NCBI GenBank assembly: GCA_028868515.1 | Contig: JAGWUI010000010.1 | Coordinates: forward strand, 29,860 to 93,859 | Direction: 5' to 3' | Source: Gammaproteobacteria bacterium | Lineage (GTDB): Bacteria > Pseudomonadota > Gammaproteobacteria > Pseudomonadales > Moraxellaceae | DNA length: 64,000 nucleotides | Translations under genes and position numbers: made by a program | Shown: one piece after another, positions 35,458 to 37,125 of the stretch | Numbering within the stretch: the stretch's first letter is position 1 | How the letters are laid out: each line of letters opens with the position of its first letter | The notes under the pieces: model-generated | What the model was told of the DNA's origin: nothing | Seen by the model: the letters and a program-made list of their open reading frames with translations, nothing else | Databases searched by the model: none

Positions 35458-37125
35458 TTATGGATATGTATCTTCAACGTATGGATTAATCTTGTAATGC
35501 ATCATTATTTCATCAATTTCTTGTTCCGATAATTTCGGCAAACAAGCCAAAGCTGATTGATTTAAAGATAAACTTTCCCAGTCCCATTTCTCTTTATATT
35601 TTTCTATAAGCTCAATCGACCAAGGTATAGCTTCATTCCTACATAATTCCTCCCAATGCCAAAGTACCTTATCATATAAATAATCGTCAACTGCACTAGT
35701 TTCAATCAATCTCGCATTCTCGTTTTCTTCAAGCACGTTAATAGAATCAATCAGCTCAATAGACCACGACAAGGCTTTATTCTGAGATAATTTTCCCCAA
35801 TCCCATCTATCATAATATTTTTCGATAAATTCTACAGACCACGGCAAGGCTTTATTTCCAGATAACTCTTCCCAGTCCCATTTATCCAGATACATTTCAA
35901 TGAGCTCTTTAGACCAAGGCAGGGTTTCATTCCAAGCTAAAGCCCCCCAACACCATTTATCCAGATACTTTTCAATAAGCTCTATAGACCAAGGCAAAAC
36001 TTTACTCTTAGATAGATAACCACTACGTGCCGAACCATGATTTTTTTTATAGTAAAACTTGTCTGATTTGTTAGATAAAAGACCCCAACACCACTTATCC
36101 TTATATTTCTCAATAAACTCTATAGACCATGGTAAAGCTTCATTCCTAGATAGCTCTTCCCAATCCCATTTTTCTTGATATTTTTCAACGAACTCTATAG
36201 ACCATGGTAAGGATTCATTCAGTGATAAAAATGACCAATCCCACTTACCCTGATATTTTTCAATAAGCTCTATTGACCACGGAAAGGCTTTATTCCTAGA
36301 TAAAATACTCCACCAGTCCACTTCGCAATAGGGATCGCTATCGCACAACATATTATTATATTTTTCAATTAGATATATTGACCATGGCAAGGTGTTATTT
36401 TTAAATATCTCCCCCCAACTCCATTGATCTTGAAATCGCTCAATAAACTCAAATGACCACGGCAAAGCTTCATTATTCGATAAACAAGTATCACTAAAAT
36501 CACTCACATAATCATTCTGCCAACTTGTATCGCCACGCTCCCACCACGAAGGACTCCAACTCCACCTATCCTGATATTTCTCAACAAGCTCTATAGACCA
36601 TGGCAAAGCTTTGTTGCTAGATAAATCATCCCAATGCCATTTATCCTTATATTTCTCAATAAGCTCTATGGACCATGGCAAAGCTTTGTTGCTAGATAAA
36701 GCTACCCAATCCCATTTATCCTGATATTTTTCAATCAGCTCTATGGACCATGGTAGAGTTTTGTTCCTAGATAGTTCTTTCCAATTCCATTTATCTTGAT
36801 ATTTTTCAATAAACTTTATGGACCATGGTAGGTTTGTATTCTCAGAAATTAATGATAAGCAGCTTACTGGTTCATCTTTTTCAAAATCATACTCTCCAAA
36901 TCTGGACTGAAATTTATCGATTAACACCTCATACATACACACGCTATAAAAAAGAAAAGGTTTTACTTTATAAAATCTGATACTTTTTAACAGCTCAACA
37001 AATCGTCGCTGCTCTATATTTTGAGTTAACTGTGAAATGATCGACAGTTGCATGCTTGCAGCAGTAATCTGCACAGGTAAATGATTCCCGGCAATCACTA
37101 AAGATTTGTTTTCATCATCCTGCAT
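35458..37125 (-). CDS. Cargo protein B: 555-aa protein of ~14 tandem 25-26-aa Trp-rich repeats (consensus ALPWSIELIEKYQDKWDWEELSRNE), unknown family
   Basis: Visually obvious periodicity in the translation, with matching nucleotide-level tandem repeats (e.g. 36588-36740). The start overlaps the stop of the upstream HKD-J gene (ATGA), indicating translational coupling. Confidence 0.75.
   Translation of the reverse strand: MQDDENKSLVIAGNHLPVQITAASMQLSIISQLTQNIEQRRFVELLKSIRFYKVKPFLFYSVCMYEVLIDKFQSRFGEYDFEKDEPVSCLSLISENTNLPWSIKFIEKYQDKWNWKELSRNKTLPWSIELIEKYQDKWDWVALSSNKALPWSIELIEKYKDKWHWDDLSSNKALPWSIELVEKYQDRWSWSPSWWERGDTSWQNDYVSDFSDTCLSNNEALPWSFEFIERFQDQWSWGEIFKNNTLPWSIYLIEKYNNMLCDSDPYCEVDWWSILSRNKAFPWSIELIEKYQGKWDWSFLSLNESLPWSIEFVEKYQEKWDWEELSRNEALPWSIEFIEKYKDKWCWGLLSNKSDKFYYKKNHGSARSGYLSKSKVLPWSIELIEKYLDKWCWGALAWNETLPWSKELIEMYLDKWDWEELSGNKALPWSVEFIEKYYDRWDWGKLSQNKALSWSIELIDSINVLEENENARLIETSAVDDYLYDKVLWHWEELCRNEAIPWSIELIEKYKEKWDWESLSLNQSALACLPKLSEQEIDEIMMHYKINPYVEDTYP

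Follow-up and report, generated by a model that had tools for sequence, protein, structure and literature searches.

The element described here is a tryptophan-rich repeat protein of 555 amino acids (aa), encoded in a stretch of 64,000 nucleotides from a gammaproteobacterium of the Moraxellaceae (assembly GCA_028868515.1, contig JAGWUI010000010.1, positions 29,860 to 93,859), which is referred to below as the window. The repeat defines a previously uncharacterised family with a confident predicted fold and no solved structural counterpart, and its gene adjoins that of a putative nuclease equipped with a J domain. The array is constant apart from a few free positions, varies in copy number among homologues, is combined with exchangeable effectors and is carried by mobile DNA. 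We therefore read it, with a probability of about one half, as a solenoid without catalytic activity that serves recognition or regulation in a conflict module of the defence type; this module would comprise two genes and spread horizontally, and in it the solenoid would bind the nuclease-J protein and hold or target it. Nucleotide positions are those of the window; homologous loci and proteins carry L and P numbers. The repeat protein has the following parts:

35458-37125, minus strand: repeat-protein gene, an intact open reading frame (ORF) with ATG start, 555 aa; homologues down to E 1e-149.
36841-37125, minus strand: N-terminal cap, aa 1-95, with the motif ENKxLv...qLxI..qL...e..rFv.lLk followed by a degenerate pre-repeat.
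35563-36840, minus strand: repeat array, aa 96-521, 14 units of 25 aa, defined by anchor spacing, the 75-bp arrays of Tandem Repeats Finder (TRF) and the AlphaFold2 model.
35461-35562, minus strand: C-terminal cap, aa 522-555, containing ALACLPKLSEQEIDEIMMHY, with a capping helix at aa 534-546 (AlphaFold2); kept at the C-termini of homologues.

The array of 14 units accounts for 77% of the protein. Its [LFI][PS]WS anchors lie at aa 99, 124, 149, 174, 221, 246, 281, 306, 331, 377, 402, 427, 452 and 500, in most cases exactly 25 aa apart, and wider anchor gaps mark inserts at aa 196-217, 268-277, 353-373 and 474-496. Twelve of the 14 units are canonical (for example NKALPWSIELIEKYKDKWHWDDLSS) and two, units 6 and 13, are degenerate; the consensus is N-x-x-L-P-W-S-x-E-L-I-E-K-Y-x-D-K-W-D-W-x-x-L-S-x, with three conserved Trp residues at positions 6, 18 and 20. 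The initial annotation of this gene had described about 14 copies of a unit of 25-26 aa with two invariant Trp residues in a W-x-W arrangement. Its copy number holds, while the period is 25 aa and a third Trp joins the two that were correctly named. By composition the protein is acidic (pI 4.7, net charge about -32) with 46 Trp residues (8.3%), and we read its location as cytoplasmic. The motif of the N-terminal cap is conserved in the stand-alone homologues P0023, P0006, P0010, P0046 and P0118 and forms a long helix (aa 16-48) in the AlphaFold2 model, followed by helices at 51-61 and 66-76. The public protein collection holds no full 555-aa product; the only entry, P0130 (145 aa), corresponds to aa 411-555 and starts at Met411, one possible reason being that short-read assemblies or gene calls break within the repeat array.

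At the DNA level, TRF called two 75-bp arrays, both far beyond chance (35747-36304, 65% matches, score 274; 36556-36828, 85% matches, score 378). The most extreme pair, 36588-36660 and its copy, is 90% identical and the closest pair of whole units 87%. Long near-identical direct repeats, as claimed initially, are thus present in units 1-3 only, and the cited pair is offset by +75 nt and not +74 nt. To call the repeats recombinogenic was an overstatement, because the mean identity between units is 67% for DNA (55% for protein) and the longest exact direct repeat in the array measures 30 nt. Scans of genomes and metagenomes found no near-identical copies, the closest homologues showing about 50-60% identity.

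For structure prediction, an alignment of 30 sequences of the repeat protein served as AlphaFold2 input and also as the profile for a search of the Protein Data Bank (PDB). The full-length model (mean predicted local distance difference test, pLDDT, 85; predicted template modelling score, pTM, 0.79) and a model of a four-unit fragment, aa 90-200 (pLDDT 92.7), both point to a confidently predicted alpha-solenoid, so that the earlier expectation of a solenoid is borne out at the level of prediction. Each unit forms two very short helices of 5-6 residues at unit positions 8-13 and 20-25, and the loops between helices hold the L-P-W-S and Y-x-D-K-W-D motifs. The predicted core of the unit contains Leu, Ile and Tyr in addition to the three Trp residues, which are nearly invariant. 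In the model, the inserts appear as loops of low pLDDT or, at 456-476, as an extra helix, and the array is closed by N- and C-terminal capping helices.

No library offered an established counterpart. Pfam returned unrelated families at E 0.06-0.5 (11-13 bits), NCBIfam nothing meaningful and PADLOC no significant match. No established repeat family of Pfam or NCBIfam, PPR included, was hit at gathering score, in agreement with the initial statement that the unit does not match TPR, Sel1, ankyrin, HEAT, MORN or LRR repeats. In the precomputed Pfam column of a newer release, most stand-alone homologues carry the entry '-'; PF27540 is listed for P0118. Neither phmmer nor the 30-sequence profile found a match among all PDB sequences, and the structural comparison suggested at the outset, run with Foldseek on the AlphaFold2 model against the PDB, gave nothing at E <= 1e-3. 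Profile searches matched the window protein to phrog_3532 (E 8.1e-31, aa 153-352), phrog_11920 (E 6e-9) and phrog_22019 (E 3e-7). An established repeat family of known function had been named as the finding that would speak against novelty; the matches were confined to these PHROG families, which have no known function. In the literature that was searched, we found no account of this repeat or of its pairing with a nuclease-J protein.

The family is large. A word-indexed search gave 574 matches (best E 1e-149), and an exhaustive phmmer search over 1.84 billion cluster representatives gave 2,624 proteins at E <= 1e-3, of which 1,351 reached E <= 1e-10 and 495 reached E <= 1e-30. Counted as clusters at 50% identity, this amounts to about 2,600, and together with the three PHROG families it shows that the repeat is not the one-off novelty it had first seemed. 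A hidden Markov model (HMM) of the unit found 2,437 units in 220 proteins, with 3-22 copies per protein and a median of 11, so that the comparison of homologues proposed in the initial annotation does reveal a wide variation in copy number. Consensus and entropy were drawn from the 470 full-length ungapped units among these 2,437. The family consensus is N-[EK]-[SA]-L-P-W-S-x-E-L-I-E-K-Y-x-D-K-W-D-W-x-x-L-S-x, in which W6, W18 and W20 are conserved at 93-98%. Positions 21 and 22, at the start of the second helix, are nearly random (entropy 3.7-4.0 bits), followed in variability by positions 8, 2, 15 and 3.

Carriers include Bacteroidota (Paludibacter, Arcicella, Leadbetterella, Flavobacterium), Gammaproteobacteria (Colwellia, Acinetobacter, Thiodictyon), Salinibacter (Rhodothermota) and Sericytochromatia/Blackallbacteria, which are relatives of Cyanobacteria. 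The repeat also occurs on four plasmids and in two jumbo phages; a scan of viral contigs found no relatives. Listeria phage LPJP1 (L020, MZ422438.1, 28.6-35.6 kb) contains a run of paralogous genes for proteins of about 200-280 aa, all annotated as hypothetical and built from the 23-aa variant LSEEFIEKFQDKVDWxYISxxQK, with 11 matching places in the record, and matches were found in Bacillus phage vB_BpuM-BpSp as well. The phage proteins of the three PHROG families have the skeleton LS-E-x-FIEKF-x-DK-x-x-W-x-x-IS in common with the window repeat. They differ from it by a 23-aa period, a single Trp per unit and the lack of L-P-W-S, and, with lengths of only about 200-280 aa, they occur as tandem paralogues that lack a nuclease-J partner.

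Directly upstream of the repeat gene lies the gene of the partner protein, for which the following features were read:

37125-38612, minus strand: partner gene, 495 aa, upstream of the repeat gene.
Partner domains: phospholipase D (PLD)/HKD nuclease at aa 1-150, coiled coil at aa 151-335 (about 185 aa), J domain at aa 336-410, then a helical tail.
38283-38336, minus strand: intact HKD motif HHKFCVIDNKTVITGSYN, H-x-K-x4-D-x6-G-S-x-N, partner aa 93-110, by direct reading.
37515-37523, minus strand: HPD tripeptide of the J domain, partner aa 364-366, by direct reading.

At the junction TAATG, the TAA of the partner gene overlaps the ATG of the repeat gene by 1 nt, and a GGAG lies 8 nt upstream of this ATG; the two genes are translationally coupled. 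The PLDc_2 match of the partner is strong (Pfam, E 9.7e-23, 80.9 bits, cut-off 27), and its best profile matches in NCBIfam and PADLOC are NucT and DrmC. From this similarity we infer that the partner is a nuclease and not a lipid-acting PLD enzyme. Its J domain is probably a true one: HPD, as CHPD, is present in all six aligned homologues of the coiled-coil-J (CC-J) part, and the J domain of E. coli DnaJ matches the partner orthologue of L013 (E 9e-4). A query comprising coiled coil, J domain and tail retrieved 204 proteins. The best 120 of them have the PLDc_2 plus DnaJ architecture and are about 480 aa long (three have 385-389 or 501 aa), with PF00226 listed for most. The partner itself is NCBI MDE2420849.1, a 'DUF1669 domain-containing protein' from a gammaproteobacterial metagenome-assembled genome (MAG).

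The pairing of the two genes is conserved. At every PLD-CC-J locus examined, a W-repeat gene adjoins the PLD-CC-J gene (window, L012, L013, the P0017 locus, L021, L022, L023, L024/L025, L028, L029 and L030), and the order of the pair is reversed in L001 and L011. Loci picked by the nuclease alone have the W-repeat gene adjacent in three of three cases. Conversely, among 18 loci found via the repeat protein (one without DNA), a CC-J gene is adjacent in nine and an Hsp70 fusion is present in one more. L026 and L032 have a PLD-domain ORF beside the W-repeat gene that shows no coiled-coil or J match, the ORF being short or at a contig end. The partners in L012 and L013 are 65% and 53% identical to that of the window, and the repeat protein diverges faster, at about 50-52% in L012 and about 41-48% in L013. 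The two components are also joined in natural fusions, namely PLD-CC-J-repeats in P0008, CC-J-repeats in P0030, and PLD-repeats without a J domain in six proteins (P0066, P0090, P0119, P0160, P0180 and P0196). The initial annotation had proposed the repeat protein as a specificity or sensor partner of the adjacent nuclease. Adjacency in both gene orders and the fusions uphold the partnership, while a sensor or specificity role remains an inference; the J domain of the partner and the link to Hsp70 were absent from that account.

The effector beside the array is exchangeable. W-repeat genes also have neighbours that encode CC-J proteins without PLD, namely in L005, in L014 and in L006, where a Fic gene is present as well. 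In L005 (175-5162, from an Arcicella MAG), genes for a vWA protein, a kinase-W-repeat protein, a CAP12/Pycsar-type TIR protein (PF10137) and a small J-domain protein form an apparent five-part cluster, and the pairing of J domain and W repeat therefore extends to TIR effectors. L014 (Colwellia sp. MB3u-70, JACGVA010000065.1) combines the W-repeat gene with a gene for an LRR protein and a divergently transcribed gene for a CC-J protein, whose Cys-rich tail resembles a zinc ribbon in the alignment; a reverse-transcriptase gene lies on one side of this locus and a PIF1-helicase/TOTE conflict system on the other. The settings are those of mobile DNA and conflict systems. In L021, the pair lies in an integrative and conjugative element (ICE) among genes of an F-type type IV secretion system, beside a TacA/GNAT toxin-antitoxin pair and SOS genes; in L012, it lies beside transposases, and in L013 and L023 near SRAP, SNase and NERD-helicase genes. 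Other pairs were found on plasmids and in transposase-flanked loci. A conserved third gene of about 200 aa after the pair (L021, L022, L023, L015) was considered and rejected, because the products are mutually unrelated except for L022/L016. In that one case, homology (E 1e-34) links the gene at 9876-10466 of L022 with the ORF at 5660-6037 of L016, a locus on a plasmid of Acinetobacter lwoffii, where this ORF comes after a W-repeat gene disrupted by a transposon.

Fusions of the array to other domains are numerous. The commonest partner is an N-terminal Ser/Thr kinase; PLD nucleases, PIF1/UvrD helicases, a dynamin-like GTPase and a DnaQ-like exonuclease are further partners, DarT, UDG, DprA/SLOG, HRDC and Lcl_C domains are fused at the C-terminus, and the array is also joined to TPR, Sel1 and ankyrin repeats. 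Residues 5-348 of P0135 form an Hsp70 ATPase domain (E 2e-48 to DnaK residues 4-376); W repeats come directly after it and replace the substrate-binding domain. The gene of P0135 (L017, 6001-8256; also in L018 and L019) lies between two genes for dynamin-like GTPases, followed by Y1 transposase fragments, a layout that recalls the GTPase/Hsp70 conflict systems of Kaur et al. 2020 (PMC7159879). This fusion independently ties the repeat to the Hsp70 cycle.

Two further proteins with unusual arrays were observed. The stand-alone W-repeat protein P0036 has an Hsp70 nucleotide-binding fragment inside its array (aa ~351-433, matching DnaK residues 227-308, E 3e-18), which may be either a genuine chimera or a product of misassembly. 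On Salinibacter ruber plasmid pSR116 (L015, 7357-11238), a 1,294-aa 'ankyrin repeat domain-containing' protein has about 18 W-repeat units; its gene lies two genes downstream of that of a stand-alone W-repeat protein and adjoins UvrD-helicase and PD-(D/E)XK nuclease genes.

In the window, the mobile setting is an island that resembles the GInt type. In GInt islands (Bardaji et al. 2017, PMC5385486), the ginABCD operon codes for three tyrosine recombinases and a small protein in which no domain is detectable; cargo genes and a short, AT-rich 3' end come after it, imperfect direct repeats flank the island at the attachment site, and the island is excised as a circle. The corresponding features of the window are:

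38765-44095, minus strand: ginABCD-like module of three tandem tyrosine-recombinase genes and a 137-aa gene, directly upstream of the cargo.
42812-44095, 41194-42819 and 39171-41201, minus strand: the recombinase genes, 427, 541 and 676 aa, with Phage_integrase matches at E 1e-13, 5.5e-10 and 0.1.
38765-39178, minus strand: the small gene, 137 aa, no domain above the Pfam gathering threshold (best ZapB, 23.1 bits against 31.5).
35297-35324, no strand assigned: hairpin flanked by A/T runs, AAAAAGCTCATA-gaaa-TATGAGCTTTTT.

The island has the ginABCD layout, with a weak GinC and an undetectable GinD, then a cargo of 3.2 kb and an AT-rich tail; the match to GInt is one of architecture and of which proteins are recognisable. 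No genes other than those of the nuclease and the repeat protein make up the cargo, which extends to about 35250 and has a GC content of 35-37%, compared with 41-49% outside the island. Between the two presumed ends of the island, a search for attachment-site repeats gave matches of only 10-13 nt, which do not exceed chance. The scan called the hairpin, which stands at the end of the cargo, on the plus strand, and a T run also follows the stem on the minus strand, where a terminator would end the two-gene operon; the hairpin is a weak candidate for this role, because the two terminator-like sites found correspond to the chance expectation (1.9). The island is flanked by ssb (44251-44739) and an MFS transporter gene on one side and by a DsbC-like gene (34409-35230) on the other. 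Just outside it, where GC content is low (34% at 30-31 kb), we also observed an H-NS-like gene, judged from its translation (30247-30582, minus strand), next to an ORF of 734 aa with internal repeats of about 100 aa (30933-33137, minus strand).

According to the reading we prefer, the solenoid would bind the nuclease-J protein and so hold or target the HKD nuclease. The complex would then be remodelled, either by a trigger or by DnaK/Hsp70 of the host, which the HPD motif would recruit, and this remodelling would switch the nuclease on. Neither window protein has an NTPase domain in Pfam, and the J domain is the only candidate switch. Conserved HPD implies engagement of host DnaK, which suggests that remodelling by DnaK gates the nuclease.

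Several observations weigh against this reading. The named homologues are all labelled 'hypothetical', with no annotated function for any member, and the models of PADLOC do not include one for the repeat protein, which leaves it without a direct tie to a validated defence system. Jumbo phages carry paralogue families of related repeats, which shows that the repeat is a general interaction module and as such not specific to defence. The variability of unit positions is a family-wide measure, not one between orthologues, and does not demonstrate diversifying selection. The Pfam DnaJ model matches the window partner at E 8.7e-6 with 26.2 bits, just under the cut-off of 27.8, and coupling to DnaK cannot be essential to the whole family, because several fused PLD-repeat proteins have no J domain.

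A more specific proposal, to which we give a low probability, is that of a chaperone-gated immune nuclease. Here, the built-in J domain would bring host DnaK/Hsp70 to the complex of HKD nuclease and solenoid; the Hsp70 cycle, or titration of Hsp70 during phage infection, would decide on the release of the nuclease, and the W repeat would be a dedicated client or ligand-binding domain of the Hsp70 system. Such a role would explain why the array replaces the substrate-binding domain in Hsp70 fusions such as P0135.

Similarly unlikely, in our view, is an addiction function resembling toxin-antitoxin systems, in which the PLD nuclease would be a toxin and the repeat protein its stoichiometric inhibitor, so that the purpose of the pair would be stable maintenance of the GInt, ICE or plasmid and not the sensing of invaders. 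This would suit a translationally coupled two-gene cassette with an intact nuclease motif that is always located on mobile DNA, in L021 even beside a TacA/GNAT toxin-antitoxin pair. The putative antitoxin is, however, large (390-690 aa) and modular, its gene lies downstream in most loci but upstream in others, and in at least eight family representatives nuclease and array form a single protein. The array also occurs on modules that do not look toxic (kinase, GTPase, HRDC, Hsp70), and the repeat protein has no DNA-binding autoregulatory domain. Membership of the type II toxin-antitoxin systems, whose antitoxin is small and labile, has a DNA-binding domain and is usually encoded before the toxin, was rejected on the same lines, given a repeat protein of 555 aa that is encoded downstream, has no DNA-binding domain match and is fused to nucleases in several genomes. 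Addiction and defence are mutually compatible.

That the array is a generic scaffold or multimerisation module that assembles effector oligomers without sensing, or else a specific client-adaptor domain for Hsp70/J proteins, is likewise a doubtful explanation. Nuc-type HKD nucleases act as dimers, and the highly idealised framework, the promiscuous choice of fusion partners, the paralogue families in phages and the replaced substrate-binding domain of P0135 would all be in line with it. A scaffold leaves unexplained, however, the hypervariable positions, the variable copy number and the faster divergence of the repeat protein than of its partner (L012, L013).

Direct DNA binding by the array is unlikely given its pI of 4.7. 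A DNA-mimic autoinhibitor, an acidic solenoid of regular charge that imitates nucleic acid and blocks the DNA-binding surfaces of its partners until it is displaced, is very improbable: the charge of the window protein, the median pI of 5.1 of stand-alone homologues, the many partners that act on DNA (PLD nuclease, DarT, UDG, exonuclease, PIF1/UvrD, HRDC, DprA) and the precedent of Qnr and MfpA, pentapeptide-repeat proteins whose solenoids mimic DNA, speak for it, but the commonest fusion partner is a protein kinase, GTPase and Hsp70 fusions occur too, and some homologues are basic, with a pI of up to 9.5.

Among known systems, the alpha-solenoid classes (HEAT, alphaRep, PPR, ankyrin, TPR) count as some of the closest. 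The module also resembles the repeat-based sensors of prokaryotic immune proteins, such as the TPR-like arms of Avs/STAND NTPases and the superstructure-forming repeats in the conflict systems of Kaur et al. 2020 (PMC7159879), which also have a non-catalytic array of variable copy number. It shares with them swappable effectors (nuclease, TIR, kinase, Fic), carriage on mobile DNA and defence neighbourhoods, and operons with vWA/kinase and dynamin-like GTPase/Hsp70 genes occur among the relatives of the repeat. In contrast to the Avs/STAND and MoxR-vWA/GTPase systems, the window module has no STAND, MoxR or other NTPase switch, and the text of Kaur et al. covered by term searches does not contain the window repeat.

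The partner resembles the single-HKD nucleases Nuc/NucT, DISARM DrmC and DpdK in its PLDc_2 domain with intact HxK-x4-D-x6-GSxN, but differs from them by a coiled-coil and J module of about 320 aa and by pairing with a repeat protein. Membership of DISARM was rejected: only the PLD domain matches DrmC, and among the ORFs of the window that were read in translation (29-42.8 kb) or scanned with Pfam (up to 46 kb) there is no drmA, drmB, methyltransferase or Dpd gene, the genes beside the cargo in this section being the recombinases, ssb, the MFS transporter and the DsbC-like gene. A precedent for an Hsp70 co-chaperone system that feeds into anti-phage signalling is the reported DnaJ-dependent phage sensing of bNACHT25 (PMC12169576). 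There, a NACHT protein uses the DnaJ of the host, whereas the module described here has the J domain built into the effector and has no NACHT domain.

Overall, a repeat-solenoid recognition module combined with an effector on a mobile island is the likely nature of the window locus, and its role is likely to be close to what the initial annotation had guessed. The repeat represents a widespread unnamed family in Bacteroidota, Pseudomonadota, Rhodothermota, relatives of Cyanobacteria and some jumbo phages, and its idealised 25-residue unit could interest designers of repeat proteins. The constant pairing with nuclease-J proteins, the fusions and the swapping of effectors are signs of a family of mobile conflict modules that has not been described so far, and the small size of the 3.2-kb two-gene cassette makes this idea directly testable. 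If true, the chaperone-gated version would constitute a new class of defence with a housekeeping chaperone as the switch and no dedicated NTPase, and the link between J domain and Hsp70 suggests that a host-chaperone switch may be a new mode of regulation for bacterial immune effectors.

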